Origin: Anaerolineales bacterium
GTDB lineage: Bacteria > Chloroflexota > Anaerolineae > Anaerolineales > UBA4823
Assembly: GCA_020060465.1 (NCBI GenBank)
Contig: JAGVAD010000005.1
Span: 46,003 to 110,002, forward strand
Direction: 5' to 3'
Length of the DNA: 64,000 nt
Each line of letters opens with the position of its first letter. The stretch's first letter is position 1. The position numbers and the translations under genes were made by a program. The notes beneath the pieces were generated by a model. That model was not told the DNA's origin and made no database searches. It saw only the letters and a program-made list of their open reading frames with translations. Positions 7,834-44,737 of this stretch are shown here, piece by piece.

Positions 7834-10800
7834 ATGATTCCACCACCTGGCTGACTTCATCCAGCTTCAGACTGAGCACCTGGCTGGCCGAATCGCGCCC
7901 CATGGTGACGCCATAAATAACATCCGCCACCTGTACTGTGTTGCGGTTATGCGTGATGATGACAAACTGTGTGGTCTGGCTCAATTCGCGCAGCAGTTCG
8001 CGAAAACGGCTGACATTGGCTTCATCCAGCATGGCGTCCACTTCATCCAGCACGCAAAACGGCGTCGGCGAGACCTTGAGCAATGAAAATACCAAAGCCG
8101 TCGCTGTCAGGCTGCGCTCGCCGCCGGAAAGCAGCGCCAGCCCCTGCTCGCGGCGGCCCGGCAATCGCGCCTGGATTTCGATGCCCGTCGCCGTCAGGTC
8201 ATCTGGTTCGGTCAAGATCAATCGCGCCGACCCGCCGCCAAACAGGCGGATGAAAATTTGGCGGAATTCGTCGGCCACCGAATCGAACGTGCGGCGAAAC
8301 TCGCGCTCCATCAAGTCGTCTAGCTCGGCGATCACCTGGCGAATGTCCTGCTCCGCCCGCTGCAAATCAGCCACCTGATCGGTCAAAAACTGGTAACGTT
8401 GCTTGACTTCCTGATACTCGATCTGTGCTTCAGGGTTGATCGCTCCCAGGCGGCGCAATTGCGCCCGTTGACGCTTGATATTTTCCTCGATGTCTGGAGA
8501 TAGTTTGTGGATTGTCGGCAATTGTTCGACCATGCCAGCCAATGGTAGTGGGGTTGGGCCTGAAACCTGCCCTTCATATTCGAACGCCACCAAGCCGAAA
8601 TCTTCCTCGATGCGCCGCTGCAAGGATTGCATCGCCTCATGACGACGCGCCAGGGCGATGCGCGCCTGGGCGTGATTATGTTCGGCGAAGCTCAACGCCT
8701 GGCGAGCGACGGTCTCGACGCGCTGCAATTCAGTCTGCTCGGCTTCCAATTGACGCAGCTCCATTTCCGCCGGTTCGATCCTGGCGTTCAGTTCCTGGAC
8801 GGCGGCTTCAATTTGGTCAGCTTTCTGAGTCCATTCGGCGCGCTGTTGCTCCAGGGTCACCAGCGCAATTTCCAGCTCTTTTTGGCGCTCTTGCAAGGTA
8901 ATTTGATTGCGGCTGACGCGCTCCAGATTACTCAGGCGTTCCTGCCGACGTGCTTGCTCATTGGCTAAGGCACTTTGTGCTACCGCAACGCGGGTTGACC
9001 AATGCGCTATCTGAGTTTGTATTTCATCTAAAGAGAGCGCTTCAAGCTTAAAATTGCTCTGTCGCAAGGAGCGACGTGCGCTGTCCAGCCGATCCTCGAT
9101 CTCGCCAATTTCCTTTGTCAGGCGCTCCGCTTCAGATTGGCTGCGGTTAAAATCGCTCTGTAAACGCTGATGCTGCTCCTTAGTCCACTGCATCTGGCGT
9201 TCTGCGGCCTCCACAGCGAGGCGCGCCTGATCGGCGGCGCGGGCGGCTTTCTGCCATTCCTGGAGGGCTTCTTCCTGCGCTTGTTCTAGCTGCTTGCCAA
9301 CGCGGCGCAGGCGTTCTAGTTCCGCTTCCAGCGTCGTAAGACGCTCGACCGCCAGGGACAGTTCGTGTTCCAACCGTTGGCTTTCGGCGGTCAGTTGGCG
9401 TTGCTGGCGGTTGCGCCCCAGCAGAGTCTGTTGTTTGCCATCCTCGCCGCCCCCACCGCCCGTGATGGGGCCGCTGGCATGAAAGACCTCGCCTGCCAGC
9501 GTGGCAGCGCGCACATCGCCTGGCTGATTCTCCAGGGCGCGCCGCGCGGCATCGCGATCGCGCACGATAAGCACCTGACCCAACAACAGTTCCAACGCTG
9601 GACGCAACTCCGCCGGTGCAGCAACCAGAGAAGACGCCACCCCTAGAATACCCTCATCTTTACTATTCAATACGAGCGGTTGCCTGAGGGGCCGCAGCGC
9701 ATTCACTGGCAAAAGCACGCCGCGACCGGCTTCGCGCTGCAAAATATCCAGAGCCGTCTCAAGGTCATCTTGCAACACGACTGCATCCAGATATTCCCCC
9801 AGAGCGGCGCTGATGGCGCGTTCCAGTTCCGCCGGGACCTCCAGGAAACTGCTCAGCGCGCCGCGCGCCCCGGAAAGGCGCTGCTGATGGACAGCCTTCA
9901 AGATCGCCTGTGTTCCGGCGGCATACCCTGCCAGGGCGGACTCGGCTTGGTGGAGGACATTGAGCTGCGCCTGGATGCGCGCCAGTTCGGCAGCCAGCGC
10001 CGAGCGTTGTTCCTGCGCCTGGCGGCGCGCGGCATCAGCCTGCTCAACTTGTTGTTTGTGCGCTTGAGCAGACTCTTCAGCCGCTTGCCGGGCCTGGGCA
10101 GCTTTTTCCACTGCCTGGCGGGCTTGCTCTAGCTTTTTGACCGCGGCGCGCAGTTCTTCGTCCGCTTTCGCCTGCGCTTGCAGCGCTGCTTCCAGAGATT
10201 TTTGAGCGCGTGCAGATTGCGCTTGATTTTCCGCCAACTGGGCCTGAGCCTGTCCATAGCGAGTGTTCAACTGACCAATCTCTTGCCGTTGGGCGGCGAT
10301 CATCCGCTCGATTTTACTGCGCTCCTCCTGTCGGGCAGCCAGTTGCCGATCCACGGCGTCCTTCTGGCTCTGGGCTTCCTGTAGCTCTGCCTGTAGCCGC
10401 TCCAGTTCCGCCTCACCAGCCAGGCGCTGCTCCTGGTGGTACGCCAGTTCCTCCGCCAGGCGCGCCAGCTCGCCGACGGTGTTTTCTTTTTGGATGAGCA
10501 ACGAATGCCGCCGTTCTTCGGACACAGCCAGGTCGCGCTGGATCAACTCGCGCTGACTGTGTAAGGCAGAGAGCGCTTTACGCCATTGGCTGAGCTGTTC
10601 GCGCGCCGCCGACAGGCGCTGGCGGCTCTCCGCCAGGCGTTGTTCGAGAGCAGCGACTTCGTTGCGCGCTTGTTCCAGGCGCGCCTCCTGAGTTTGGGCT
10701 AATTGCTGCGCTTCCGCCAGCTCGCGCTGAGTAACCTGCCAGTGATAACCGTACCACTCGCGCAGCATCTCCTGCAAGTCAGCGCGCAACTGCTCGTATT

Positions 10801-14915: not shown

Positions 14916-15626
14916 TCAATCCTGAGGGCTGGGGATGTAATCGCCCTCCACCCATTCCTCGCCCTGCGCCCCGACTTCCTTCTTCCACACCGGCACGATC
15001 TCTTTGAGGCGGTCAATGCCATAGCGCGCGGCTTCGAAGACTCCGGTGTCGCGGTGCGCTGCGGTGCAGGCGATCAGCACCGTCGGCGTGCCGGGGTGCA
15101 GTACGCCGATGCGCTGCACGATGGCGATGCCCTCCACGCTCGGCCAGCGGGCGCGGATTTCTTCCGCCACCTGGCGCATCTTGGCCTCCGCCATTGGCTG
15201 ATAGGCTTCGTATTCCAGGTAAAGGGTCTCGTGTGGTTGGTCGCGGCGGGTGACGCCGCGCACCATGCCGGTGAAGATGCAGGCCGCGCCGGTGGAGGGC
15301 AACGTGATGCGCGCCAGCAGATCATCCAGGTCGAGCGCCTCTTCGGTGATGGCGAAGAAGGTCGGGAATTCAGGCGGCGCGCCGCCGCTGACCGGTGGGA
15401 AGACTGCCGCCTCTGCCCCGGCGGGCAGCAGGTCGTCATCGAAGGCGAACTGGCGGTTGACCGAGACCAGCGCCGTATCCAGCGCCGGAGCCAAAGCGGG
15501 GTACTCCTCCCGCAAACGGCGCTTCAAATCGGCCACGCGCGCCTGATCGGGCATCTCCAGCGTTGCTTGTTTAGTGCCGGCGCGCTCGCGCAGGGTGGCG
15601 AAAAATAAGACAGTAATCTGGTTCAT
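14916..15626 (-). CDS. moaDE: molybdopterin synthase MoaD-MoaE fusion protein
   Basis: The N-terminal 82 aa are MoaD-like and end in FPPVSGG. This continues directly into a MoaE domain (ACIFTGMVR...LEYEAYQPMAE...PVWKKE). AGGTGG lies upstream of ATG 15626. Confidence 0.8.
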   Translation of the reverse strand: MNQITVLFFATLRERAGTKQATLEMPDQARVADLKRRLREEYPALAPALDTALVSVNRQFAFDDDLLPAGAEAAVFPPVSGGAPPEFPTFFAITEEALDLDDLLARITLPSTGAACIFTGMVRGVTRRDQPHETLYLEYEAYQPMAEAKMRQVAEEIRARWPSVEGIAIVQRIGVLHPGTPTVLIACTAAHRDTGVFEAARYGIDRLKEIVPVWKKEVGAQGEEWVEGDYIPSPQD

Positions 15627-16173: not shown

Positions 16174-16574
16174 TGGCACAGGCTGAAGTCTGTGCTACCT
16201 GGTCACAGGCTAAAAGCCTGTGCTACTTGGTCACAGGCTGAAGCCTGTGCTACTTGGTCACAGGCTAAAAGCCTGTGCTGTGCTACCTGGTCACAGGCTA
16301 AAAGCCTGCGCTACTTGGTCACAGGCTAAAGCCTGCGCTACTTGGTCACAGGCTAAAGCCTGCGCTACTTGGTCACAGGCTAAAGCCTGCGCTACTTGGT
16401 CACAGGCTAAAGCCTGTGCGCTACTTGGTCACAGGCTAAAAGTCTGTGCTACTTGGTCACAGGCTAAAGCCTGCGCTACTTGGTCACAGGCTGAAGTCTG
16501 TGCTACCTGGTCACAGGCTAAAAGCCTGTGCTACCTGGTCACAGGCTAGTGGCACAGGCTTAAGCCTGTGCTAC
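16174..16574. repeat. tandem array of ~15 copies of a 27-28 bp hairpin unit (consensus TGGTCACAGGCTAAAGCCTGYGCTACY)
   Basis: Read directly from the sequence. There are 12 full TGGTCACAGG units of 27-33 bp, one truncated unit, and terminal TGGCACAGG variants, with no spacers. Each unit contains the palindrome CACAGGCT-(2-3 nt)-AGCCTGTG. Confidence 0.9.
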
Positions 16575-16642: not shown

Positions 16643-16753
16643 TTGCGCCACGGACGGGTTGCTGCGCTTGCCGCGTGCTGCTTGCTTGAAAGCCGCATAC
16701 AGATTGATGAAAGAGGTGATTTGAGGATAGAGGTTGTCGAAGCGTTTGGTCAT
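16643..16753 (-). pseudogene. N-terminal remnant (~37-45 codons) of a DGR/group-II-type reverse transcriptase
   Basis: MTKRFDNLYPQITSFINLYAAFKQAARGKRSNPSVAQ matches the conserved RT N-terminus pattern (K/R-R-x-x-N-L-[YFW]-x-x-I-x-S-[FW]-x-N-L-x-x-A-[FY]-x-x-A-x-[KR]-G-K-R). The reading frame then runs into the cysW relic and array, and no RT motifs 1-7 are present. Confidence 0.6.
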
Positions 16754-16861: not shown

Positions 16862-19834
16862 TCAGTATTCTGCCAGGGACAACACCACCCGGAACCCGAT
16901 GTAGTTGAGGAAGAGGTTGAGCGGATAGTACCTGCCGCGGTAGGCGCAGCGGGCGTCCTGTGGATGGGCGTTCCACGAGCCGCCACGCATCACCCGAGCG
17001 CCATCCGCTTGCAAGTCGTTGCGTCCATCCTCCGCGTGATAGGGGTATGGTTGGTAGAGGCTGAGTGTCCATTCCCAAACGTTGCCGCTCATATCAAGCA
17101 CATCGTAGGGGCTGGCGCCTTTGGGAAAGATGCCCACCGGCGAGGTCTGTTCGAGTTGGGTTTCGCTGTAATTGGCATGCTCGGGGGTGATGCGGTTGCT
17201 GCCCCAGGGATAGATGCGCCCGTCCGCGCCGCGCGCCGCTTTTTCCCATTGCGCCTCGCTGGGCAAGGAGAAACTTTCAGGGCGCTGCGCCGCTAGCCAG
17301 AAGGCGCGCTGCTCTGGAGAGAGGTCGTCCCGCGCCAGGTATTGTGAGCTAAGCGAGGCTAATTTCTCGCCCAGCCAGCGGCAGTAGGCCAACGCTTCAT
17401 ACCAGCTTACCCCCATCACGGGGCGGGTCAGCGCTCCCCCTCTGGCATCTCCCCAATCGTACGGCTGGCTGCGGTTGTTCCTCTGCTGCCAGTCCCAGCC
17501 CGATTCCGGCGGTGTCCAATATCGCCGCTCATCGTAGCCATGCTCGGCGATGAAGTGGGCGAATTGGGCGTTGGTAACCGGGTAACGGCTGATGTAGAAA
17601 GCGGGCAATTCCAGGGTGTGTGGGGGCTTTTCGTCGTTATCCGCCTGCTTGTCATTCTCGGCGCTGCCCATCCGAAATGGCCCGGCAGGGATATACACAA
17701 AGCCCAGGGTCGGTTCTGGCCGGGTGCGGTAAAATGCCGGCAGGCTGAAGGTCTTTTCGTCGAAGCGCGGGTCGCCCAGAGCGGCCAGGGTATCGCCCGC
17801 GCGGGCGCGCAGGGCAGCCGGCGCGTTGCATGCCGGGTCGGTGAGCGCGGCTTCCAACTTCCCCGCCAGTTTGCGGCGAATGGCTGGATCCGGTCGTTCA
17901 ATTTCCAAGACGGCGGCGCCCGCCAGTTCCAATCCCCCCAGTTGCAGCGCTCCCTCGCCGCGCAGATTCGAGAGCCAGTCGAGATACTTTTGGGCGAAAG
18001 GGGCATAATCCTGTTTGGCGAAGCCGTATATCAGCAACAGCGCCTCGCGCCACCAGGAATCCAGCACATAATCCCGCAGCAAGCCCAGCGATAGCTCGCG
18101 GTCTTTGGCTAACCGGCGCGCCGCCAGGAACTCCTGAAAGGTCAAATGGGCGAACTGGAAGAGTTCAGCGCGCTCTTCCAGTAATCCACCGCGGCTGCGC
18201 ACCGCTTTGATAAATTGATCCAACCTTTCTTTCGGCAGTTGAACGCTCAAGATTTCCCGCAAACGCGCTTCATCAACGGCAGCCCCGTTTTCCCCGTTGC
18301 GGTGCATTTCGAGCGCCAAATAAGCAAGCCACTCACGCTGTTCTTCCCAGGGGCCTCCCCAGTTGATCAATTCCTGACGGGCAGTATCCTCCTCCAGGTA
18401 TTGCGCCTGTAAGATGACCCGAACGACCGCTTCGTACAGGCGCGCCCGTTCGCGCGGCAATTCGGCCTCGCCCCATTTGACGCCGATCACCATGGTGGTC
18501 AACAAGGGTGTGCTGATCAGCGGGGGTTGATTTTGCCGTTCGTAGCGCTCATTGATGGTTCGAATAACAGAGGTAATGTCGGCAACCTGCGCCTCAACCT
18601 GAGTGGGGAACAATTGTTCACACCACCGACGCGCCAGATATTCGATTTGGTCGTCCTTCAGCTTGCACACATCCAGGCGGATAAAATCTTCGCTGAAGAT
18701 GGCGTTTTCTTTGTAGCCCGATTCACGTGCCGTGACGATGAACAGATTTCGCGGATAGATTTCGTTCGCCAGACGCTCGATTTCTTGGCGCGCCTGGCCG
18801 CGCTCTTCCTGGCTGACCACTTCATCCAGCCCATCCAACATCACCAGACAACCCCCGCCCACCAGCAGACGGTCAAAAAATTCATCCGCCAGGTCTTCAT
18901 CCGCTGTTTGGATCGCCTGGCTGCGTTTCTTGAGATACCATAAAATGAAACCCGCCAATGTCCCTGAACGCACTTTGGTAAGCACCTGGTCGGGCGACTC
19001 ATGGCACAGGCGCATGTATTCGCGCCGATAGCGCAGAGGAATGACCAGCGGCACCAGGGCGCGTCTCTGACTGGGCAAGTCGAAAGGCAGCGCCGTCTGG
19101 TGCAACGCATGGTCGGCTAATGAAGAAGCCAGAAAGGCCAGCAGGGTGCTTTTGCCGCTGCCCGCGCCGCCGATGATTGCCAGGCGGTCGCCCAGGGTCA
19201 GCATCTCCTTGAGGGCGATTTGTTCGCCTTCTGTTTGCCGCCTCTCGATTAATCGCAAAAAGGCTTTTTGCTCGGCGAATGGGTCGTCCTTGAATTTTTC
19301 TTGGGCCAGCTTTTCCACTTCGCTGCGCGCTGGCGGCGAAAGACGTTGCAAGGTAATGGGCACAAAGACGTCCGCCAGATTGCGCTTCTTGCGTTCTCCA
19401 GAGCGGCCCCACCCTTCCAAACCATACAAACGAGCCTGTCCAAAGGCTTTCTGCGCCCAGACGAAATAATCATACAGCAAACGCCGGAAGTCATCTTCCG
19501 ACATGCGCGGTTTGCCAGGCGGCGTCTGGAAAATCTGATACAGCACGACCCCGGTGTTGAGCCAGGAATGACTGACGGTTCCGCCGCTTGCAATTCCAGC
19601 ATTGTTTGCGTGTGTATTTGGCGCAGATTTCTCGCTCCGTCGGCTCAAGAACCAGAAGACCCCCGAAGCCAGCGACCCAATTGCCCACAGGATAGAGAGG
19701 AATGCATCTGCGCTCTGGATTAGCTCGCCGCGCGCGCCAAGAAAATTCATCAACGGCCGCCAGCCCAACCAGGTAACGATTGCCAGCAGCGCCAAAACGA
19801 GGGTGGTTCGTAGATAAGCCGACTTGTTTTTCAT
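16862..19834 (-). CDS. membrane-anchored NACHT-domain STAND NTPase with C-terminal FGE-sulfatase (SUMF1/DUF323-type) domain
   Basis: 990 aa. Two N-terminal TM helices are present. The NACHT domain shows Walker A IIGGAGSGKSTLLAFLA, Walker B CLVMLDGLDEV and the FIVTARESGY region. The last ~279 aa (nt ~16865-17701) are FGE-type (FVYIPAGPFRMGS...YPVTNAQF...MSGNVWEWT...RVMRGGSW...GFRVV). GGGAGG lies upstream of ATG 19834. Confidence 0.85.
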   Translation of the reverse strand: MKNKSAYLRTTLVLALLAIVTWLGWRPLMNFLGARGELIQSADAFLSILWAIGSLASGVFWFLSRRSEKSAPNTHANNAGIASGGTVSHSWLNTGVVLYQIFQTPPGKPRMSEDDFRRLLYDYFVWAQKAFGQARLYGLEGWGRSGERKKRNLADVFVPITLQRLSPPARSEVEKLAQEKFKDDPFAEQKAFLRLIERRQTEGEQIALKEMLTLGDRLAIIGGAGSGKSTLLAFLASSLADHALHQTALPFDLPSQRRALVPLVIPLRYRREYMRLCHESPDQVLTKVRSGTLAGFILWYLKKRSQAIQTADEDLADEFFDRLLVGGGCLVMLDGLDEVVSQEERGQARQEIERLANEIYPRNLFIVTARESGYKENAIFSEDFIRLDVCKLKDDQIEYLARRWCEQLFPTQVEAQVADITSVIRTINERYERQNQPPLISTPLLTTMVIGVKWGEAELPRERARLYEAVVRVILQAQYLEEDTARQELINWGGPWEEQREWLAYLALEMHRNGENGAAVDEARLREILSVQLPKERLDQFIKAVRSRGGLLEERAELFQFAHLTFQEFLAARRLAKDRELSLGLLRDYVLDSWWREALLLIYGFAKQDYAPFAQKYLDWLSNLRGEGALQLGGLELAGAAVLEIERPDPAIRRKLAGKLEAALTDPACNAPAALRARAGDTLAALGDPRFDEKTFSLPAFYRTRPEPTLGFVYIPAGPFRMGSAENDKQADNDEKPPHTLELPAFYISRYPVTNAQFAHFIAEHGYDERRYWTPPESGWDWQQRNNRSQPYDWGDARGGALTRPVMGVSWYEALAYCRWLGEKLASLSSQYLARDDLSPEQRAFWLAAQRPESFSLPSEAQWEKAARGADGRIYPWGSNRITPEHANYSETQLEQTSPVGIFPKGASPYDVLDMSGNVWEWTLSLYQPYPYHAEDGRNDLQADGARVMRGGSWNAHPQDARCAYRGRYYPLNLFLNYIGFRVVLSLAEY
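16877..17000 (-). other. DGR-type variable region (VR) at the 3' end of the NACHT-FGE gene
   Basis: This 124-nt segment is homologous to 20026-20146, with identical 27-nt and 24-nt flanks. In the core, 13 of 15 substitutions fall on adenines of the other copy. It encodes [33 protein letters not shown]. Confidence 0.75.
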
Positions 19835-19850
19835 CCATACCTCCCAGAAT

Positions 19851-19890
19851 GCCTCCGCGCCGCGCTCTTGCAGAGACAGGGCGCGGAGGC
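19851..19890 (-). other. 11-bp perfect stem-loop just upstream of the NACHT gene RBS
   Basis: GCCTCCGCGCC ...18 nt... GGCGCGGAGGC. The loop contains a further CTCT/AGAG pairing. The structure ends ~5 nt upstream of the GGGAGG RBS on the transcribed strand (~16 nt upstream of the ATG). Confidence 0.5.
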
Positions 19891-20025
19891 GGTTGGATAT
19901 TCGGCCGGGCGTCGCCTCGCCAGGGGCAAACGCCGCGACCAGGGGCTGACCAGGCTGGCAAAGTTTCTAACGCTCCGTCCCGCCTCTGTAAAGGTTGGGA
20001 TTTACCGGCGTTTTCATTTCGCTAT

Positions 20026-20146
20026 GGACAACACCACCCGGAACCCGATGTTGTTGTTGAAATTGTTCGGATTGTTCCTGTTGCGGTAGGCGCAGCGGGC
20101 GTTCCGTGGATTGTTGTTCCACGAGCCGCCACGCATCACCCGAGCG
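20026..20146 (-). repeat. DGR-type template repeat (TR), Asn-codon (AAC/AAT) rich
   Basis: This 121-nt copy of the VR reads [32 protein letters not shown]. It lies inside a 77-aa TTG-started ORF (20014-20247) that lacks the rest of an FGE domain and has no RBS. Confidence 0.75.
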
Positions 20147-20259
20147 GTGTGGGTCAGTCCCTGCAAAGCTGCGGCGCAAAGCCGCGGATTGCTCGATTGA
20201 TGTGGCATCTGTCGCTTCCAGCCGCGCTGGATCGCGAGTTTTCCCAATCGTTATTCACT

Positions 20260-20288
20260 ATTGTAGAATAATTTGTAGAGGATGGCAA
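20260..20288 (-). promoter_or_regulatory. candidate sigma70-type promoter reading toward TR and the NACHT gene
   Basis: The minus strand reads TTGCCA (20288-20283), a 17-nt spacer, then TACAAT (20265-20260), within an AT-rich patch. Tandem AAAATCCGTTG direct repeats lie just upstream. Confidence 0.4.
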
Positions 20289-20366: not shown

Positions 20367-20447
20367 TGGCACAGGCTTTAGCCTGTGCTACCTGGTCACA
20401 GGCTAAAAGCCTGTGCTACTTGGTCACAGGCTAAAAGCCTGTGCTAC
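20367..20447. repeat. second array (3 units) of the same hairpin repeat, same orientation as array 1
   Basis: TGGCACAGGCTTTAGCCTGTGCTACC, TGGTCACAGGCTAAAAGCCTGTGCTACT and TGGTCACAGGCTAAAAGCCTGTGCTAC. The cysW stop codon (20444-20446) lies inside the last unit. Confidence 0.9.
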
Positions 20448-35094: not shown

Positions 35095-36870
35095 TCAATC
35101 CTGCGCCGCGCCGGGAAAGAGGCTGTTGCGCGCCCATAGAATAATGTACTGATTGGTGATCGGCGCTCTGCGGAAGGTCAGCCAGCGGATGAAATCCGGC
35201 GGAATGCCGCCTGACCAGCCCGGCAGCGTCCACCAGACAAAATCTTGGCCGCGATAAGTCTCAGAAACGCCGGGCGTCTCCGCCTCCAGCCGGGTGATCA
35301 GAACATCGGGCAGGTTATCGCGGTCAATGGCGCTGCTGAAACGAGCGTTTGGATAATCGCGCAAGAACCAGCGCAGGGAAGGCGTATCTACCAGAGAAAG
35401 AATATCAATGGAATTTTGCATTCCGGTCGCCCAGTTAGACAGATCTCTCAGCGTGGACTGCGCCAGGCGCGCCTGACCCGTGCCAGGCGGCGCGCCCCAT
35501 AACTCTGCAGGCTGGTTTGGGCGTAACTGCGTCGCTCCCCAAAGCGCGTTGGTGGAGTAAATCAGCAGGGTAACTGCCAGACCCCAAATCAAGCCATCCC
35601 GACTGATCTCCCAACTCCAGCCCAGCGCCACCAGGGTCGAGGTCAAGATGCCCAGCGCAAGGATGCCCGCCAGCACCACCAGCCGCAGGATATTCCACGG
35701 GATCGTAGCCGTGGCGATCAGATCTGGAGCGATCAATGTGTTGTAGAACAACGCAGCCAGGATCATGACCAGACATGCCTGTAAAAACACCATGATATGT
35801 GGCTTTTCTTGCGGCAAATACGCCGCCAACGCCGCCGCGGCAACTGCCCAGATGGGGACGATGCTCCAGATCAGGTCGCTGACCTGGCGTCCTGGATATA
35901 GCAACGTCAGCAACAGGCTTGCCGCAGCCCAGATGAGCAAACCAGGTTGGATGGCGGCGCCTTCGGCGGTGCGCTCGTCTCTGCCTATCTGGTTGATTAC
36001 GCCAATCGTTGCGAAGATGATCGCCAATAGCTCGAAGGTAAAGAGAGCCAGGAGAATGGTCGAAGGACTGATGTTCGAGGGGATCGCCCAGCCCTGGAAA
36101 TAGGCGATCAGGCTGGCAAAAAAACCAGCCAATCCTTGCGGAAAACGTCCCAAACCGGATCCCACCAGCAAAAACGCGCTCAGCCCGGCTACCCAGGCCA
36201 TGCCGACCTCTCGCCGACTGAAAAAGCTCAAAGTTGGCTCAGGATTAGATTGTTCGTGATGGTCTTGTAGCGGATCGGCGGCATGGAGACGCAGCCGCCG
36301 CTGGCGCAGGGCGCCCTCGGCCAGCAAAGCTGCCGCCAAACCGATTGCGCCGGGCAAGATTGCCGGGCCAGAGAGCAAAGCCAGGCTGCCGGTGACGCTA
36401 GCCCATATCGGCTGGCGAGCACGCCATAATCCCAGAGCCAGCAGGCTGAAGCTTAGCGCCAGTATGGGACCGCCTGCCTGGCGGGAGACTGTGGTCAACC
36501 CTGGGTCAAGCGCCAGACCGAAAGCCAGAAGCACAGCAGCGGATCGGCCCAGATCGCGGCGGAAGCAGTAAGGCGCCCAGACCAATAGAGCGCCAGCCAG
36601 AGCAGGCCAAAATCGCGCCAGAAAATCATTCGCTCCCAGGAAAATGAAGGTGAGACCGGTCAGGATGATATAAGCAGGCTGAGCGCCGCTGCCCTGGCTG
36701 GCGGCTGCTATTTCAGGGCGGGCGATCTGCAATGCTTGTAACGCCCAGCCAGCCTCTTGATCGGAGAGCGGAGCCGCCCCCAGGTTGAGCAGGCGCAGAG
36801 ATAACGCCAGCAGGAAGGCCAGGCTGTATAAAACAATTTCTACGGTGAGCTTTTGCGATTTATTCATCAT
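35095..36870 (-). CDS. polytopic membrane protein, GT-C/ArnT-like fold suspected (TIGR03663-like by recollection)
   Basis: About 590 aa with more than 12 predicted TM helices. The N-terminus is LRLLNLGAAPLSDQEAGW. Its ATG overlaps the stop of the upstream DUF2298 gene (ATGATGAATAA), which suggests translational coupling. Confidence 0.5.
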   Translation of the reverse strand: MMNKSQKLTVEIVLYSLAFLLALSLRLLNLGAAPLSDQEAGWALQALQIARPEIAAASQGSGAQPAYIILTGLTFIFLGANDFLARFWPALAGALLVWAPYCFRRDLGRSAAVLLAFGLALDPGLTTVSRQAGGPILALSFSLLALGLWRARQPIWASVTGSLALLSGPAILPGAIGLAAALLAEGALRQRRLRLHAADPLQDHHEQSNPEPTLSFFSRREVGMAWVAGLSAFLLVGSGLGRFPQGLAGFFASLIAYFQGWAIPSNISPSTILLALFTFELLAIIFATIGVINQIGRDERTAEGAAIQPGLLIWAAASLLLTLLYPGRQVSDLIWSIVPIWAVAAAALAAYLPQEKPHIMVFLQACLVMILAALFYNTLIAPDLIATATIPWNILRLVVLAGILALGILTSTLVALGWSWEISRDGLIWGLAVTLLIYSTNALWGATQLRPNQPAELWGAPPGTGQARLAQSTLRDLSNWATGMQNSIDILSLVDTPSLRWFLRDYPNARFSSAIDRDNLPDVLITRLEAETPGVSETYRGQDFVWWTLPGWSGGIPPDFIRWLTFRRAPITNQYIILWARNSLFPGAAQD

Positions 36871-39403
36871 TAAGGCCGGTGTATTCATAAATAACCACAG
36901 TGCCGGAACTGAATACAGGAGGCAAATTGCGAATGAATTTTGTCTCCACCAAACCGTTAGGGCAGGCGTCATCGTTGGCGTTGTATGTGGCGCGCTCTAG
37001 CGTCCCAACGACGACATAACGAATCGAATATTGATCCAGGATGAGGCGCGCTTCCTGCCAATTGCGGGTGCAATAAAGCCTTTCGATGTCGTCTTGTCGG
37101 CTGCCCATGGCTTTACCACTATTCTCGCCGCGCCATTGATTCTGATGACCAATCCAGCCCAGCACCGCGGGATGCCCAGAGAAGGTCGCCATTCTACCAT
37201 ATTCCCGGTAATCGCCGCCTTGATAATCCACTGCTTCAGCCAACACACCCGGCGGCGCAGCTTGCAAGAACTGGATCGCTTTCATTTCATCGGGTGATTG
37301 GCGCGCCAGATAGGCGCTGCTATCCAACGTCCATTGACCGGGGGCAAAACCGTTGGTTTTGCTCCATAAACCGAAAACAGGATAGACCAAACCAGCCGCC
37401 AACAGAGCGGTTATTCCCAGGCTGAACAAAGCGCGCAGACTGCCCCGCAATTCCATAACTAGAATCACTGCGCCGTAAGAGGCGGCGATGCTCCACACCT
37501 GCCAGGCGGTGAAATAGAACTTAAAAATCGTGTTCATGCGCCAGCCGAACAGGTCGCGCAGATAAAAGAATTCCGGCCCAACAACCAGGAGCGTCCCCAT
37601 CAGGATCAGTAAGACGGCAAAAGTTCGCGCCCGAAAGGGGGGCGATGCCTCTTGAGCTGAGGAATTGCGGCGATCGAAAGCGGTGAGCAGACCCAGGCAG
37701 AATGCCAGCAAAACCAACAGGGTGATCCAGCCCCCTGGGGACAGAAAGCGGCGTATCAGGGCGTTGCTAAATAGCTGGGCGCTGTCCTGCGCGGCCAGCG
37801 ATCCGAGGAACGGCGCGCGCGCTTCAGGGATCAGCAGGATGAGCGCGCCCAGGGTCAGCGATAAGAGCCACAACAGCAGCATAAAGCCCCCCGCCAGCCC
37901 CAGGCCTCGCGCCAGCCATTGGCGATCCGTCAGCGATCGGCTAAAGTAGACCAGATAAGCCAGGATTGGCGGCAGAAGCGTTCCGAACATCACCCACAAA
38001 TGAGCGCCGCGCGTGGGGTAGATCAGGTTGGGCAGAACGCCGCCCGCCTGAGACGAGAAGCTGAGATAAAAAGGCAGGTACAGGAGCACGCCGGCTAATC
38101 CCACAAACAGCCCAAACCATAAGAAATCCGCTGTCGCCTGCAAGATGGACTTCTCCCCTTGCAGCACAAAGCTCAGGGCGTAAGCGGAGGCTGCCAGCGT
38201 CAGAAAGAGGGGGAAATCCCAGATATTTAAGAACGCCATCCCGCCCAGCGCAACGGCAGCCAGCAATGCCGCTGCCGGGCTCAAGCGTAAGGGGGCGAAC
38301 TCGCTTCCCCGACTCAATCTCAAGCGCGGCCAGGGCTGTGGACTGCGACTGCCACCGAGCAGGAAGTTCAGGGCAATGGTCATGGCCAGCATGGCGAACG
38401 GCATGGCTAAGACGTGCGGGTGCAGATCGCCTAGCAGGTATGAGAAGAAGGGGAATTCGTCAATGATTTCTCTGGCGTTATTGGCCAGGTCGTAATCCTG
38501 CAAGACGCGCGATGCCCGCCACCACCACCAAAACCGCGTGGGTTGCCAGCTCAAAGGCAATGCCGGGGGTTGATTTAAGTCTTTGATATCCAGCCATTTC
38601 CAAAAGGCAGAGCTCAGCGCGCCAGTTTCATCCGCCGTCCAGAATAACCCGCGCGTATGCAGGCTGTGCAGAAAGCCTTCCAGGTTGCTGACGATCAACA
38701 GAAAGAATGGCGCCAGCAAAGGCGAGAGAATATGGCGCTGTGGTGCAAGATCACCCTCATTCGTCTGTCGGGCGACGGGCACAGAGGCGTTGAGCAAGTT
38801 ATACAACAATCCATAAGCGCCAATCGCGCTGAGCGCAAACACCAGGCTGACACCCAGGTTGAAGGCGATGGCGCCCGGCGTCCCTGAAATCATTGCCAGC
38901 ATAGCAACCAGCACGTAACCAAAGTAATAGTAAGAAATGGCATAACCCGAAAGCCAGGGATCATGCGGCGGAAAGGTGGGCGATTTCAGGATGGCGTTAA
39001 TAAAAGCCAGTTCCATGGGCTTTTCTGTGCCTACCGCCTCCGGGTTAGCCGCTCGCACGAGCGCCCATAGCGCAAAGGCCAACAGGAAGAGCACCTCTAC
39101 GACCAGGATCATGCGCCGCTGCGCTCTCAACCAGGCGAACATCTCTTGCGGGTGAACGCCCAGCAAAGCCCATAGGGTGAGTCCGCCCATCAGCGCGGCG
39201 GCGAAGAGCAACCCCGTCGGCTCGTTGCGCAGAATGCCCAGAGAAGCCAGCAGCCAGAAGAGAAAGCCCCAAAGCAGCAAGCCCAGGGCGCGGCTGACTG
39301 CATAGCCGCGATCCTTCAGCGCGGGGAGCAAGCGATAGGAGATGGGAAACGCCAACCAGCTCAGCCCGGTGACAACCAAATACCAGATCGCCCAATGACT
39401 CAA
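36860..39403 (-). CDS. DUF2298-type 'YYY-motif' polytopic membrane protein
   Basis: 847 aa. It has PPHDPWLSGYAISYYYFGY and a C-terminal soluble domain paralogous to the C-terminus of the 1771-aa neighbour. Confidence 0.6.
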   Translation of the reverse strand: MSHWAIWYLVVTGLSWLAFPISYRLLPALKDRGYAVSRALGLLLWGFLFWLLASLGILRNEPTGLLFAAALMGGLTLWALLGVHPQEMFAWLRAQRRMILVVEVLFLLAFALWALVRAANPEAVGTEKPMELAFINAILKSPTFPPHDPWLSGYAISYYYFGYVLVAMLAMISGTPGAIAFNLGVSLVFALSAIGAYGLLYNLLNASVPVARQTNEGDLAPQRHILSPLLAPFFLLIVSNLEGFLHSLHTRGLFWTADETGALSSAFWKWLDIKDLNQPPALPLSWQPTRFWWWWRASRVLQDYDLANNAREIIDEFPFFSYLLGDLHPHVLAMPFAMLAMTIALNFLLGGSRSPQPWPRLRLSRGSEFAPLRLSPAAALLAAVALGGMAFLNIWDFPLFLTLAASAYALSFVLQGEKSILQATADFLWFGLFVGLAGVLLYLPFYLSFSSQAGGVLPNLIYPTRGAHLWVMFGTLLPPILAYLVYFSRSLTDRQWLARGLGLAGGFMLLLWLLSLTLGALILLIPEARAPFLGSLAAQDSAQLFSNALIRRFLSPGGWITLLVLLAFCLGLLTAFDRRNSSAQEASPPFRARTFAVLLILMGTLLVVGPEFFYLRDLFGWRMNTIFKFYFTAWQVWSIAASYGAVILVMELRGSLRALFSLGITALLAAGLVYPVFGLWSKTNGFAPGQWTLDSSAYLARQSPDEMKAIQFLQAAPPGVLAEAVDYQGGDYREYGRMATFSGHPAVLGWIGHQNQWRGENSGKAMGSRQDDIERLYCTRNWQEARLILDQYSIRYVVVGTLERATYNANDDACPNGLVETKFIRNLPPVFSSGTVVIYEYTGLNDE

Positions 39404-39412
39404 GCGAGCACC

Positions 39413-42400
39413 TCAATCAGCGATGACTTCGTAAATCACGGTGTCGCCATCGCGATAGACTTCTAACCAAAATACGCCGTCGGCGGCTTCAAACTTGTCC
39501 AGCCCAGGGCCAGGATAATGCCCGCGCTCCTGTTGGCCTACGATGATATATCGAACCTGATATTTGCGCAAGAACTCCACAGCCGCGCCCAGGTCGTCGG
39601 TGAGGTAAAACTCATCCACTTCGCGGATGCGGTCGCTGATCCAGGCGGCTGGAATGACCGCCCGCTGCTGCTGCTGATGCCACTCCCAACCCACCACGCC
39701 GGGCAAGCCGGTGTAGATGCTAAAGCGGGAGCCCCAACGGTACAGGTTGCGCAGGTTGGCTTCGACGATCACCGGCGACCCTTTTATATGATCTTGTATC
39801 CAGCGAATGGCGCGATAATCCTGACTCAAATCCATGGGACCCCATTCATCGTTATAGACCGAATAGGGCATGAACGCCATGCCATCCAGGGTGTGCGGGG
39901 CGGCTTTGCTCATGCGGTCATCTATCTTGGCGGTGGTAGCCATGATTGGATATAGGGCTGCTCCGCTCACCAGACCAACCAACAGGATTTGCCAGCCGGC
40001 TCGCCAGGAGGGGCGCCAATCCGGTAGAGCGGGGATCACCCAGCCCAACGCAACAGCCGCGCTGATTGAAAACAGCGTCCACACCTGAAGATAAAACTTG
40101 AACACAGTGTTCATGCGCCCAATGTCGCCGCGCAATACAATAAGCTCGACCATCAAGGTCAGCGTCAGTCCAGTGCCAACCATGAACAAAACAAACCGCT
40201 TGGCGTCTGGCATTTCCGGGCGCAGCAGCAAGACGCCCGCCAGCGCCGCTAACGGCAGCGCCAGCCAGGCGATATATACATTGAACAGGTACAACCCTAA
40301 AACCAACAAGACGCCCAGGATCAGGACAAATTGTATCAGCCAGCGATAAGGCGCCAACCGGCGCAAAGCAGAGAGGGGCGTCTTCGCCAGCCAATCCCGC
40401 GTTTCCCATGCCATCCAGCTCAGGATGGCGAACAGGAACACCCCCCAATGGATAAGGTAAGAATAGGTGGGCGTGTGCGTGCCTTTCCAAAGGTCAATTT
40501 TGGTGTAACCGAGCGCATACCATTGGGCATAAGGCCGGAAAAGCAGCAGGGATAAACCTACTAACAAACCCGCTCCAATGAGCGCTGCCAGCGCGCTCAG
40601 AAAGCCTGGGCTGAGTTGCTCCAGGAAGGCGAACCTTTGCCGCCATGCATCAGGGAGTCGAAAGTAGCGTATCCAGGTGTACAGGACGATCACAATGGCT
40701 AGTGCCAGGTAGGTGGGCATATCCCAGGTGTTGGTGGGGCGCAAGACGCCAATTGCCAGCCCAGCCAGCCCGAACCAGGCGATCCCGCCGCCGATCTGTT
40801 TCCATTGACCTTTGCCTAATAAGAAGGCAACGATCAAACCTAAGGCCAGCAGGGTGAGCGGCAGGGCCAGCAGGTGGGCGTGCAGGTCGGCGTACAAAAC
40901 GGTAAAATAGGGAAATTCTGTGATGGGTTCGACATCTCCCGGCGCGGGGATCGCCCGGCTGGGGATCCAATACCAATCGCCCACGCCGTACGGCAGACGC
41001 GCCCCTTCCAAAACCTGGAAGAACCCTCGAATTGTCCATACCCAGAGAGTGGGCAGAGCCGCCCCCTCGATGTTTCCGCCAGGCGCGGCCACCCGCTGGA
41101 ATCCCTGGTAAAGCATACGCACCGTGCCGAGATTGCCCAGCACAGCCATCCCTAATGCAGCCGCCAGGCCGGGGATATAGGGCGAAATCCTGCCCGCTTC
41201 TACGGGCAAGGTTTTCGAAGCGCGCTGCGCCGCTGCTCCTTGCGCCAGGTTCCAGGCGGCGGAAAATGCGCCCAGGGCGATCAGGCTGAACAGGGTGGGC
41301 AGAATCAGGTTATATGCAATGGATGGAACAATGCCCAGCAGCTTGACCGGGACGCCGACCAGAACAAAGCCGTAATAATAATAGTTGAGATAACCGCCAG
41401 CGTACCAGGGGTCATAGGGCGGAAAGCTGACGCTCTTCAATACCGCGTTAAAGTAAGAAAAATCCATGGGCTTTTCGCCGCCCTTCCAGGGATGCCACAG
41501 ATCCGGGTTGCCCAAGCGTATCAGCAGGAATGCGACGAAAAAGGCCAGGCTCAAGCCTTCAATGCTCAGGAAATATTTTCTTTTCTGGCGCAGTTCAGAA
41601 CGGATTTCACCCCACTGACGACCATAAAGCCAGGCGCTGATGAAAGCCATCCCCAGCAAGACGATCCCGATGGTTAATTTCGTCGCCGGAATGCGAAGCG
41701 AACCGGCCAGCCAAACCAGATAAGACAGGACGAGCATTCCGGCGATGCGCGCCAATGGATAGCCGCGATCCTCCAGCCCAGGCGCAGCCAGGCGCAGCAG
41801 TGGGTAGGCGATCCAGCCCAATAAGGTAATGGTCAGATACCAGATCACCGCTGCCAGAAGAGGGTAACGGTTGTGCAGGGCGTTGACGTTGAACAGCTCG
41901 CTCCATGTGCCGCCCGCCTGCTGTTCTGCCCAACGCTCGTCGGGCAATTGCAGATCGCTGGGGTATGAACCAGCCCGCAGTGGAGCGACACGAATGACTT
42001 TCGACAAATCCACCGACTCTAAAATCGCCCGCGCTTTGGCTGAGTCGTAATCGCCGGTCTTCTGGAAGATAAATACTTTTGGATGGTCGTAAACCGTGAA
42101 AGCTTCTTCCGCAAACTGGTCGTTCAAGCGGATCGGCCCCAGGCGCGGCTCGGAGGTGAATGTCTCGACCAATTCAAACCCGAGGTTGCCCTTGAACATC
42201 CCAGGCTCGGCGATGCGATAGCAGTTCTCCACCGACATCTCGCTGGGGCAACCCAGCAGGTTGCGATAATAGATAGTGGTCATCGGGAAGCGTTCGGGCA
42301 GGCGCGGCAGACTGCCCCATTGACGGCTGGAGCTGATTAAGATGTAATCGGCTTCGTCCAGGATGCGTAGAAAACGCTCGCGCTTTTCGGGGTTTTCATC

Positions 42401-44728
42401 CCAGTACATGTTGAAGTTTAATTCGAGGGGATAGATGCCGCCGAACCCATCGTAGCCGTCCATGCGCAGCGGTAGGCCATCGTCCCATTCGCCTTCATTG
42501 GCGACGCCCAGTCCGTTGAGCGCAATCGCCGTGCCTTGCGGCGGTAGTTCCAGGGTCAGGCGATAGGTTTCGCCGCCATTGACCCGAATGGGCGCACCCA
42601 GGTTTAAGATGATCTCCCCACCTTCGGCGACCTCCTGCAACTGTAGCGAGGAATGGATGATTTCACCGCCCGGCTGCGAGCCGAGAACGGATTCTACAGC
42701 TATGCTCAGGCTCTCCGGGCGAGTCAGCGGGCGTGTATCGGGCGCCCCGCGGATGCGCAACTGGCTCAACTGACCGTTGGTTTGAGGCTGGAATTCGTAT
42801 ACGGGGCGATCTGCGGATGGCGGCTGAACAGGGGCTGCGGGCAAGGTCTGGCTGGTTGAAACGTCCGGTTCGGTTGCCAGCGGAGCGACAGTCACCCAGA
42901 CTTCGGCGCTAAAGCTGGAGGCAGGCGCAGAGCCGCTTTCCGCCACTTCAAGACTCAGGATATAAGATTGATCCGTTTCTAATTGGATAGGTGGATCGAG
43001 CGTCAGGATGATGTTTTTACCGCGTGAATCCTCTGCCGCAGCCAGGTTATCTTGCAAGACCGCCGTCGCCATAGGAGCAGCCGGGGAGGCAACATTTGTC
43101 AGCGCGAGCTTCAAGGTCACAATCTGACTTGCGCCGCTTTCATCTCGCACGCGGGGCAAAAGAACCTGCGCCAGCGCTCCGCTTGCCTTTGGGACAAACG
43201 TGGTTGTGAAGGGCGTCGTCGGCGTGATGCGAAAAGTATAAGGGAAAGGCAATATCTGATTGAAAACGCCATTGCCAGTTTGGATCGGCAAAGTGATCGG
43301 CCCGGGAATATTCTGATAAATCCAGCGAGAGGCGGCGATGCGCGTGATGGGGCGGGTGTAAATGCGCGAGAAGGCATAGGCGTAAGCATACGTGGCGAGC
43401 AAAACCATGCCTGCGAGCAGGATGGACACCGGGCGCGCCCATCGCAGGCGAACCAGTTTGCGCCTGGAGAGAGATTCTGCAACCTCAGTTACCTCCGTTT
43501 CGCCAGGCGCGCTGGATTGGCGAAGATTGAACAAGGCCAGGATCGCCCAGGCGGCAAAGATTGCCAGCGTTGGATAGATTGGCAGTTGATAACGCATGGT
43601 GGGGTTAAGCTGGATGGACTGCCAGGCGAAATACGCCGCCGTCCAGCTCCAGATCAGGCTATGGGCGAGCCATTGCTCTCGCTTCGCTTTCCAAACGGTC
43701 AGCAATCGCCAGCCTACCCATAAGAAACCCGTCCAGGCCAGGGCGCCTAACGGCAAACCCAGGCCCCACACAGTCAGATTCTGGAATGAAAACCAGATTG
43801 GGCGGCGCGCCCATTGCATATTGGGCGGAAAATCGAAATCCGGGCTGGCCTGGGCGCGCTGCGAGCGGATATTCTCCACCCATTGAGGGTTAGGCTTCAG
43901 ACCGAAGAAACCCGGCCCGCTGAAGGCATAGGGTTGCAACAGGCGAAACGTCAGCAAACTGAGGAACGCTGCCAGCGCCAGGTAAGCAAACAAACGCGGC
44001 CATTTGCTCTCACGCTCCTGCGCCGGTGTGCGCGCCAAAACGATGAGCATCGCCGCCGGCAGTGTAAAGGCGACCAGGACGGTGTTGATCTTAGAGGCGA
44101 CGGCCATGCCCAGGGCGACGCCAAAGGCTGTGCTGGGCCATAACAGCGATTCATCCACCCGGCTGCTGACGACTTGCACGGCGAAGTATAGCGCCAGGGT
44201 GGAGAAAAACGTGGTGAAGGTGTCCATGGTGAAGAAGTGCGACTGCTGAATTTGCAATACGGCTGCGGCAGAAAAAGCCATGCCCAGCAGCCCCACCCAT
44301 CTTCCATATAAACGTTTGCCAATCAGGTACACCAGGAAGACTGTCCCCAGGTCGGCCAGTGCAGAGAGCATACGGCCCATGTCGGTCATCTCTTGCCAGC
44401 CGGAGCCGCCATAGACCCATTCGACCAGATAGCGAGCCACAAACATGGGGAACGTGCCATAGACATAAAAGCCGTGCCCGCGGTTATGCGGGTTCAGGCT
44501 GGAATTTGCAGTGTCAAAATACGCCGAAAGACTTTCAACCGGCTGGATGTCTGTGCCTACCCAGACCAGAAAACGCTCATCGGGGTGCAAAAATTGATAT
44601 TCGCCCCAATCCAGTCCGGAAAAGCGAAAAAAGGCGGCTGCGCCTAAGATGAGCAGCACAAGGATGGTTTCAAGGATTGCATCGGTGAAGCGCCTGAACG
44701 GCGAGGAGGACGGTTGAGTGGATGTCAT
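39413..44728 (-). CDS. giant (1771 aa) fusion: GT39/PMT_2-like GT-C membrane domain + extracytoplasmic beta-rich region + DUF2298 'YYY' membrane domain
   Basis: The N-terminus carries FLHPDERFLVW, with a DE motif in the first loop typical of GT-C enzymes. The C-terminal half (from ~aa 1000) parallels the 847-aa protein, including PPYDPWYAGGYLNYYYYGF and the terminal RYIIVGQQERGHY region. Confidence 0.6.
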   Translation of the reverse strand: MTSTQPSSSPFRRFTDAILETILVLLILGAAAFFRFSGLDWGEYQFLHPDERFLVWVGTDIQPVESLSAYFDTANSSLNPHNRGHGFYVYGTFPMFVARYLVEWVYGGSGWQEMTDMGRMLSALADLGTVFLVYLIGKRLYGRWVGLLGMAFSAAAVLQIQQSHFFTMDTFTTFFSTLALYFAVQVVSSRVDESLLWPSTAFGVALGMAVASKINTVLVAFTLPAAMLIVLARTPAQERESKWPRLFAYLALAAFLSLLTFRLLQPYAFSGPGFFGLKPNPQWVENIRSQRAQASPDFDFPPNMQWARRPIWFSFQNLTVWGLGLPLGALAWTGFLWVGWRLLTVWKAKREQWLAHSLIWSWTAAYFAWQSIQLNPTMRYQLPIYPTLAIFAAWAILALFNLRQSSAPGETEVTEVAESLSRRKLVRLRWARPVSILLAGMVLLATYAYAYAFSRIYTRPITRIAASRWIYQNIPGPITLPIQTGNGVFNQILPFPYTFRITPTTPFTTTFVPKASGALAQVLLPRVRDESGASQIVTLKLALTNVASPAAPMATAVLQDNLAAAEDSRGKNIILTLDPPIQLETDQSYILSLEVAESGSAPASSFSAEVWVTVAPLATEPDVSTSQTLPAAPVQPPSADRPVYEFQPQTNGQLSQLRIRGAPDTRPLTRPESLSIAVESVLGSQPGGEIIHSSLQLQEVAEGGEIILNLGAPIRVNGGETYRLTLELPPQGTAIALNGLGVANEGEWDDGLPLRMDGYDGFGGIYPLELNFNMYWDENPEKRERFLRILDEADYILISSSRQWGSLPRLPERFPMTTIYYRNLLGCPSEMSVENCYRIAEPGMFKGNLGFELVETFTSEPRLGPIRLNDQFAEEAFTVYDHPKVFIFQKTGDYDSAKARAILESVDLSKVIRVAPLRAGSYPSDLQLPDERWAEQQAGGTWSELFNVNALHNRYPLLAAVIWYLTITLLGWIAYPLLRLAAPGLEDRGYPLARIAGMLVLSYLVWLAGSLRIPATKLTIGIVLLGMAFISAWLYGRQWGEIRSELRQKRKYFLSIEGLSLAFFVAFLLIRLGNPDLWHPWKGGEKPMDFSYFNAVLKSVSFPPYDPWYAGGYLNYYYYGFVLVGVPVKLLGIVPSIAYNLILPTLFSLIALGAFSAAWNLAQGAAAQRASKTLPVEAGRISPYIPGLAAALGMAVLGNLGTVRMLYQGFQRVAAPGGNIEGAALPTLWVWTIRGFFQVLEGARLPYGVGDWYWIPSRAIPAPGDVEPITEFPYFTVLYADLHAHLLALPLTLLALGLIVAFLLGKGQWKQIGGGIAWFGLAGLAIGVLRPTNTWDMPTYLALAIVIVLYTWIRYFRLPDAWRQRFAFLEQLSPGFLSALAALIGAGLLVGLSLLLFRPYAQWYALGYTKIDLWKGTHTPTYSYLIHWGVFLFAILSWMAWETRDWLAKTPLSALRRLAPYRWLIQFVLILGVLLVLGLYLFNVYIAWLALPLAALAGVLLLRPEMPDAKRFVLFMVGTGLTLTLMVELIVLRGDIGRMNTVFKFYLQVWTLFSISAAVALGWVIPALPDWRPSWRAGWQILLVGLVSGAALYPIMATTAKIDDRMSKAAPHTLDGMAFMPYSVYNDEWGPMDLSQDYRAIRWIQDHIKGSPVIVEANLRNLYRWGSRFSIYTGLPGVVGWEWHQQQQRAVIPAAWISDRIREVDEFYLTDDLGAAVEFLRKYQVRYIIVGQQERGHYPGPGLDKFEAADGVFWLEVYRDGDTVIYEVIAD

Positions 44729-44737
44729 AAGAGCGAT

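Follow-up and report, generated by a model that had tools for sequence, protein, structure and literature searches.

A diversity-generating retroelement repeat pair in an Anaerolineales bacterium, probably orphaned by deletion of its reverse transcriptase

Can a retroelement that rewrites the end of a gene be recognised when its reverse transcriptase is out of view, and is such a gene still being rewritten? The question is raised by a 64,000-nt stretch of the genome of an Anaerolineales bacterium (assembly GCA_020060465.1, contig JAGVAD010000005.1, positions 46,003 to 110,002), called here the window and numbered from its first letter. The initial annotation read the 3' end of a gene for a 990-residue NACHT protein, together with a homologous segment upstream of it, as the variable repeat (VR) and template repeat (TR) of a diversity-generating retroelement (DGR), and saw no intact reverse transcriptase (RT) or Avd accessory protein in the window. 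Our analysis finds that the repeats are a genuine DGR template/variable pair, diversifying the sensor tip of an NLR-like NACHT protein, and we consider it likely that this chromosomal pair was orphaned by a deletion of the RT, Avd and TCAD2 genes, the VR now being most probably frozen. The features concerned are the following.

16862 to 19834, minus strand: target gene, 990 amino acids, NACHT plus FGE/C-type-lectin fold, with the VR at its C-terminal end
16877 to 17000, minus strand: VR, 124 nt, codons 945-986 of the target open reading frame (ORF)
20026 to 20146, minus strand: TR, 121 nt, rich in Asn codons, with 29 adenines

In local alignment the TR (20146 to 20026) and the VR (17000 to 16877) match from end to end. 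They share an identical 5' block of 28 nt, CGCTCGGGTGATGCGTGGCGGCTCGTGG, and an identical G+C-rich 3' block of 24 nt, ATCGGGTTCCGGGTGGTGTTGTCC; an 18-nt 3' block occurs at only two places in the window, the TR and the VR, with 0.02 chance matches expected. The core between these blocks contains 15 substitutions, 13 of them at TR adenines, and the VR is longer than the TR by one codon, a 3-nt insertion of CTC at about 16919-16921. The homology of the two segments and the counts given in the initial annotation were therefore correct, and the enrichment at template adenines that it had proposed to check is strong: 13 of the 29 TR adenines are changed, against 2 of the 92 other positions (one-sided Fisher p = 5.4e-8). 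The restriction of TR/VR differences to template adenines by which a DGR is recognised holds for 13 of the 15 substitutions, and one of the exceptions is a private mutation of the TR.

Both differences at other bases had been written as changes from TR to VR. This direction was correct for the G-to-A change (CGG to CAG, VR base 16959), but the T-to-C difference (AAT to AAC, TR base 20062) must be assigned to the TR, because six of six relatives have AAC where the window TR has AAT and the window VR also carries C there. Base 20062 is thus a private C-to-T change of the window, and the rest of its TR is identical to that of the six sister contigs described below. The G-to-A change and the extra CTC codon are private to the window lineage as well, CGG and the TR length being kept in all four RT-linked alleles. 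These private TR and VR changes would fit ordinary mutation later than the last retrohoming event.

The TR is located in a 609-nt intergenic region 5' of the target gene. It is overlapped by a 77-residue ORF (20014-20247, minus strand), which is called as a gene of 77 or 81 residues in the sister contigs and has a weak FGE-sulfatase Pfam score. This ORF is almost certainly an annotation artefact of the TR/VR homology.

The closest database protein to the target is P0001, of 989 amino acids and 96% identical, encoded on a 308-kb JGI contig (L001) that has 97.5-98.7% nucleotide identity to the window and is syntenic with it from the sensor kinase to smc. L001 is one of six metagenome contigs, L001 and L003 to L007, that we refer to as sister contigs. 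The gene order in L001 is permeases, TR, target, RT (357 aa), Avd (111 aa), TCAD2 protein (151 aa) and moaC, and the same cassette is present in the five others. The L001 RT matches RVT_1 (E = 2e-16) and has the motifs LPIGNLTSQ and YVDD; an IGxxxSQ motif is typical of DGR RTs. The L001 Avd scores 110.7 bits on the NCBIfam model DivGenRetAVD, for which the cutoff is 80. A DGR-clade RT and an Avd are therefore found at this very locus in the sister strains.

Comparison of the sister contigs also revealed the variation among strains, restricted to template adenines, that the initial annotation had named as a further check. L001, L003 and L004, from three different samples, show 11-17 pairwise differences over 10,970 nt and are otherwise identical; the variable positions number 20, all inside the 121-nt VR and all at TR adenines. 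At the protein level, the four members of the target cluster have no differences in about 945 residues outside the VR and 7-12 differences inside it. Compared with the TR that they have in common, the VRs of L001, L003 and L004 carry 13-15 changes at adenine sites and none elsewhere, and the L005 allele carries 12 together with one change at another base. This is the classic signature of mutagenic retrohoming and demonstrates current diversification in the RT-bearing sister lineage. Because the sister-strain VRs vary at adenine sites only, the window VR was written by a DGR beyond doubt, and with the RT and Avd of the sister strains this supports the DGR signature proposed for the C-terminus of the NACHT-FGE protein. 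A metagenome scan returned one sister contig only, and the 27-nt block had no match in a scan of GTDB species representatives.

The statement that no intact RT or Avd lies in the window was also borne out, and the reason is a deletion of 1.83 kb in this lineage. Relative to L001 the window lacks 1,835 bp (L001 13187-15021), which contain the codons for RT residues 37-357, Avd and TCAD2. What remains is the following.

16646 to 16753, minus strand: stub of the DGR RT, first 36 codons, MTKRFDNLYPQITSFINLYAAFKQAARGKRSNPSVA
16646 to 16652, minus strand: deletion junction, CGTGGCG microhomology, where RT codon ~36 is joined to sequence just past the TCAD2 stop

Starting inside the VR and ending at the junction, a run of 254 nt matches L001 at 100% identity. 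Both deletion endpoints have the sequence CGTGGCGG in each of the six relatives, within an imperfect direct repeat of about 32 nt (CGTGGCGG-N10/11-CACCTGGRAGAT), and the window junction reads CGTGGCG-C-AAATG, with one base changed. Past codon 36 the stub runs into unrelated sequence and reaches a stop at 16571. A six-frame search of the 64 kb for YxDD gave no RT-like motif, and tblastn of three DGR RTs, two Avds and TCAD2-like proteins against the same sequence recovered the 36-codon stub (16753 to 16646) and nothing else, Avd included. Pfam found no RT or Avd among the genes flanking the pair.

Residues 30-50 of TCAD2 (L001 14635-14697) resemble residues 75-95 of the target linker (window 19612-19550), with 15 of 21 identical in the pattern HAxxxGIAxGGxVSHSxLNTG (E = 9e-8). 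The common motif suggests a possible homotypic or adaptor contact between the sensor and TCAD2, in which case the deletion strain would have lost a partner along with its mutator. A regular-expression search for the motif in 80 related loci found it in this lineage only; the pattern was probably too strict.

The target protein has a NACHT domain at residues 217-406 (Pfam, E = 1e-11), with the Walker A motif GAGSGKST at 222-229, and an FGE-sulfatase domain at residues 712-984 (E = 3e-59). An AlphaFold2 model built from 62 homologs (pLDDT 80.9, pTM 0.76) places two helices at the N-terminus, followed by a disordered, low-confidence linker, an NLR-like module of NACHT and helices, and a C-terminal mixed alpha/beta domain. 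In Foldseek the structural matches of the C-terminal domain were ToxD, EgtB and FGE, those of the central module were NLRC4, NAIP and NOD2, and phmmer with the target found the Treponema DGR variable protein TvpA (2y3c, E = 2.5e-9). The VR is therefore located at the C-terminal end of a C-type-lectin/FGE-fold protein, as expected of a DGR target, and the Pfam matches and the model together give the arrangement of NACHT NTPase, helical arm and C-terminal sensor domain expected of a STAND/NLR-like protein. In an alignment of 62 family members the consensus C-terminus is RVLRGGSFxxxxxxxRCAxRxxxxPxxxxxxxGFRVV, and nearly all of its undefined positions correspond to TR codons with an adenine, mostly AAC or AAT.

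The N-terminal 210 residues had no Pfam match and contain only the two helices, which coincide with hydrophobic segments at about residues 6-28 and 44-63 in a hydropathy profile. We infer that the target may be a membrane-tethered, cytoplasm-facing NLR-like sensor with the VR as its ligand-binding tip, presumably acting as an intracellular sensor in a conflict system. An enzymatic FGE role appears unlikely: by reading the sequence, a single Cys (RCAYR) is seen in the segment, and the second catalytic Cys of an FGE would presumably be placed at one of the hypervariable codons. The ORF of the target is intact, and for its NACHT core we obtained a ratio of nonsynonymous to synonymous changes (pN/pS) of 0.09 relative to L001. 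Residues 1-210 (window 19834-19205) show 10 nonsynonymous and 3 synonymous differences from L001, a pN/pS of about 1 from small numbers, which suggests that this putative effector or anchor region evolves fast.

By homology to characterised DGRs, the RNA of the TR would be copied by an RT-Avd complex with misincorporation opposite adenines, and the mutated cDNA would then replace the VR. About 14 codons would be randomised in this way while the scaffold GGSW..P..ARCA.R....P.......GFRVV is kept. The window VR would have been written before the loss of RT, Avd and TCAD2, a deletion between two CGTGGCG(G) repeats would have taken out RT residues 37-357 and the other two genes, and from then on the VR would have undergone ordinary mutation only. 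We think that this account is probably correct as a whole, the DGR of the window being presumably inactive at present.

Several observations weigh against this account. The 64 kb seen here leave room for a second DGR RT elsewhere in the genome; it is common for a genome with an RT of this clade to have more than one DGR, and action in trans has been proposed (Doré et al. 2024, PMC10907252). The TR and the VR each have one private point change per ~121 nt, within the between-strain divergence of about 2-2.5% (roughly 3 per 121 nt). The target ORF is intact, the pN/pS of the NACHT core is low, and in three-way distances the window branch has about 11.5 amino acid changes against about 14.5 on the RT-bearing branch. 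Finally, the deletion allele is present in one assembly only (P0124), which leaves some room for an assembly error or a minority variant. Decay of the window pair, which the initial annotation had considered, is plausible; because the private changes lie within the background divergence, they do not demonstrate it. A faster decay of the target in the RT-less lineage was rejected, as the branch is no longer and the NACHT pN/pS is 0.09.

Perhaps the pair remains active, an RT and Avd encoded elsewhere in the genome acting on it in trans and loss of the local RT being tolerated through redundancy. Both repeats are intact, and so are the promoter-like site, the spacer, the hairpin past the VR and the target ORF, whose NACHT core is under purifying selection; related genomes often have several DGRs of this clade with multiple NACHT-FGE targets; the Ca. 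Roseilinea homolog (L008) lacks an RT next to it; and diversification of incomplete loci in trans has been argued (PMC10907252). However, 64 kb contained no RT, and fresh retrohoming would normally overwrite the extra codon and the G-to-A change of the VR, neither of which is found in the four RT-linked alleles. In addition, RTs of different species in the clade are 59-69% identical, which makes it uncertain that one would recognise the TR RNA of another. Overall, servicing in trans seems to us rather unlikely.

The deletion could also be an assembly artefact or a minority variant in an organism that carries the complete cassette. The single assembly with this allele agrees with such a view, and tandem 27-nt arrays nearby could confuse assemblers, but the junction is in unique sequence with a microhomology of 7 nt, at least 75 nt from the tandem array, and collapse by an assembler needs repeats of k-mer length. 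The locus also carries independent private differences throughout, at about 2% nucleotide divergence, and we regard an artefact as very improbable. The suggestion that TR and VR are ordinary diverged fragments of paralogous FGE genes, with no retroelement origin, has nothing in its favour but the missing RT and can be dismissed in view of the adenine-specific asymmetry (p = 5e-8), the RT stub adjoining the target, and the full DGR with strictly adenine-site VR variation in the sister strains. The reading that we prefer is still that of a genuine pair orphaned by the deletion.

Sequences around the repeats were inspected for elements that might act in cis, and two tandem arrays were found at the same time.

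19835 to 20025, minus strand: spacer of 191 nt from the TR to the target start codon
16792 to 16812, minus strand: G+C hairpin of 9 bp, CTGGGGGGC-TGC-GCCCCCCAG, 65 nt 3' of the VR and followed by a T-run
20260 to 20288, minus strand: sigma-70-like promoter match, TTGCCA-17-TACAAT, 10/12, about 115 nt upstream of the TR
16177 to 16570, plus strand: tandem array, ~13 copies of a 27-nt hairpin repeat, CACAGGCTAAAGCCTGTGCTACTTGGT, between the RT stub and moaC
20370 to 20447, plus strand: short tandem array, 2.4 copies of the same 27/28-nt repeat, between the ABC permease gene and the TR

The hairpin and the promoter-like site may be cis elements of the DGR, and an IMH, expected at the 3' end of a VR, would coincide with the identical G+C-rich 3' block. 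In the Bordetella phage DGR a hairpin is found downstream of the VR, and by analogy the G+C hairpin could be a target-recognition hairpin, or else a terminator. Sigma-70-like matches were no commoner in this region than in shuffled sequences, so it is its position only that marks the match upstream of the TR as a candidate promoter. Synthesis of cDNA by the Bordetella phage DGR is primed by an RNA element close to the TR, of which the 191-nt spacer may be the counterpart. A conserved structured RNA was not upheld for this spacer: its predicted fold of -79.8 kcal/mol is not significant (z = -1.48), alignment with the TR-RT spacers of two distant family loci, L010 and L011, gave no convincing sequence conservation, and Rfam gave no match.

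Within the 64 kb, arrays of the 27/28-nt repeat are found only on both sides of the DGR cassette, in the same orientation. L001 has them as well, at 9201-9468 (about 10 copies, upstream) and at 15171-15253 (fewer copies). It may be that the cassette is mobile or recombining and that the arrays lie at its ends.

The genes upstream of the pair encode two ABC permeases, an ABC ATPase-Usp fusion, a response regulator and a histidine kinase, and those downstream are moaC, moaD/E, a pyridoxal-phosphate enzyme gene and fabF. Other large ORFs of the window are housekeeping genes, among them DUF2298/PMT glycosyltransferases, lepA and a glycogen phosphorylase-like gene. At 36860-46942 (minus strand) three consecutive genes for large membrane proteins (847, 1771 and 734 aa) with DUF2298 and PMT_2 domains precede GT4 glycosyltransferases, in a large cluster for envelope glycosylation that has no relation to the DGR pair.

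More than 200 NACHT-FGE homologs of the target were found, mostly in Chloroflexota/Anaerolineae. In distant members (L010, L011 and dozens of loci) the NACHT-FGE genes adjoin RT, Avd and TR, and the family is therefore a regular target of DGRs. L010 and L011 have the classical order target-Avd-TR-RT(-target2). A scan of species-representative genomes with the RT gave 565 relatives, and the layout was checked in those of the 80 best loci that extend for at least 6 kb. Most of these loci have the order target-RT-Avd-TR, in some cases with a second target and a TCAD2 gene after the TR, and three of them (L023, L025 and L039) share the TR-target-RT-Avd order of the sister contigs. We considered whether a TR upstream of its target was a new layout and rejected this, both from these three loci and from the 48 DGR cassette architectures of Wu et al. 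2018 (PMC5758913), where the TR and the RT are not necessarily co-transcribed.

The hosts of the RT relatives (Anaerolineae, Caldilineaceae, Ktedonobacterales, Ca. Amarolinea, Levilinea, Thiotrichaceae, Methylococcaceae and Ca. Contendobacter) match the 'multicellular bacteria' DGR clade of Doré et al. 2024 (PMC10907252). The initial annotation stated that DGR-diversified STAND NTPases had been noted in surveys and had not been characterised functionally. The second part stands, but the first does not do justice to the literature: Doré et al. 2024 (PMC10907252) and Kaur et al. 2020 (PMC7159879) have given detailed analyses of STAND/NACHT-CLec sensors diversified by DGRs, those of filamentous Chloroflexi included, and have described incomplete loci and possible action in trans. 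The window locus is thus an RT-less relic of a kind of system already described and not a new kind.

The nearest known systems are the 'putative antigen sensors' of the clades of Thiohalocapsa PB-PSB1 DGR 3 and DGR 6, which include filamentous Chloroflexi (PMC10907252) and likewise combine a central STAND (NACHT) module with a C-terminal FGE-type lectin that contains the VR. Both groups have an Avd-type accessory gene, incomplete loci and domains of a 'ternary conflict system' (TCAD2 here), and the RT clade is in both cases common to Anaerolineae and filamentous or aggregate-forming Gammaproteobacteria. In contrast to these systems, RT, Avd and TCAD2 are missing from the window copy through a defined deletion, its lineage has the minority order TR-target-RT-Avd where such relatives have target-RT-Avd-TR or Avd-TR-RT, and the N-terminus of the target appears to be a two-helix membrane anchor with no recognised effector domain.

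Comparison with the prototype, the DGR of Bordetella phage BPP-1 (mtd-avd-TR-brt), shows the same adenine-specific transfer from TR to VR in the last ~40 codons of a C-type-lectin-fold protein, an IGxxxSQ RT partnered with Avd (in the sister strains) and a G+C hairpin 3' of the VR. Unlike the phage element, the one described here is chromosomal and cellular, its target is a cytoplasmic NLR-like NTPase and not a tail fibre, a 3-kb target gene separates the TR from the RT, and in the window the RT is absent. TvpA of Treponema denticola (PDB 2Y3C), an FGE-subtype lectin DGR protein, is like the C-terminal domain of the target in its FGE-type fold and in sequence; however, it is a surface lipoprotein without a NACHT module. 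With the bacterial NACHT/Avs antiviral STAND NTPases and with eukaryotic NLRs (NLRC4, NOD2) the target shares a Walker A NACHT domain, a helical arm and a tripartite plan ending in a C-terminal sensor, but here the sensor is a hypermutable lectin fold in place of TPR or LRR and no known effector domain is present.

Two loci of the family have neighbourhoods that deserve mention. Neither RT nor Avd nor TR is found within 6 kb of the family member in the complete genome of Ca. Roseilinea sp. (L008 6001-9207, AP024676.1), which has an insertion sequence (DDE transposase) close by and, at a distance of 3 kb, a 23S_rRNA_IVP/four-helix-bundle gene. This family member could be a second orphan or a remote target. 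In L010 (1-5261) a pPIWI_RE module, prokaryotic Argonaute-like, is found directly upstream of the NACHT-FGE/DGR cluster, which fits a defence-island context.

The footprint left at template adenines allows a DGR to be recognised from its sequence alone, with no RT in view. In this lineage it also provides a natural contrast between sister strains that are identical over 11 kb but for 20 template-adenine sites in the sensor tip and a close relative that has lost the RT, Avd and TCAD2 genes and kept one allele. With this contrast one could study how a filamentous Chloroflexota bacterium is served by hypermutation of an NLR-like sensor. Useful as the comparison is, specialists will not be surprised to see diversifying strains matched with a presumably frozen one. 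A more adventurous idea, and one that we consider distinctly unlikely, is that the loss of RT, Avd and TCAD2 was adaptive and 'locked in' one useful sensor specificity, the TR, the VR and the sensor gene being kept. If this were so, DGR-bearing populations would alternate between diversifying and fixed states, and the kept TR would permit reactivation by an incoming RT of the same clade. The deletion strain beside its diversifying sister strains would make such a locking-in directly testable.

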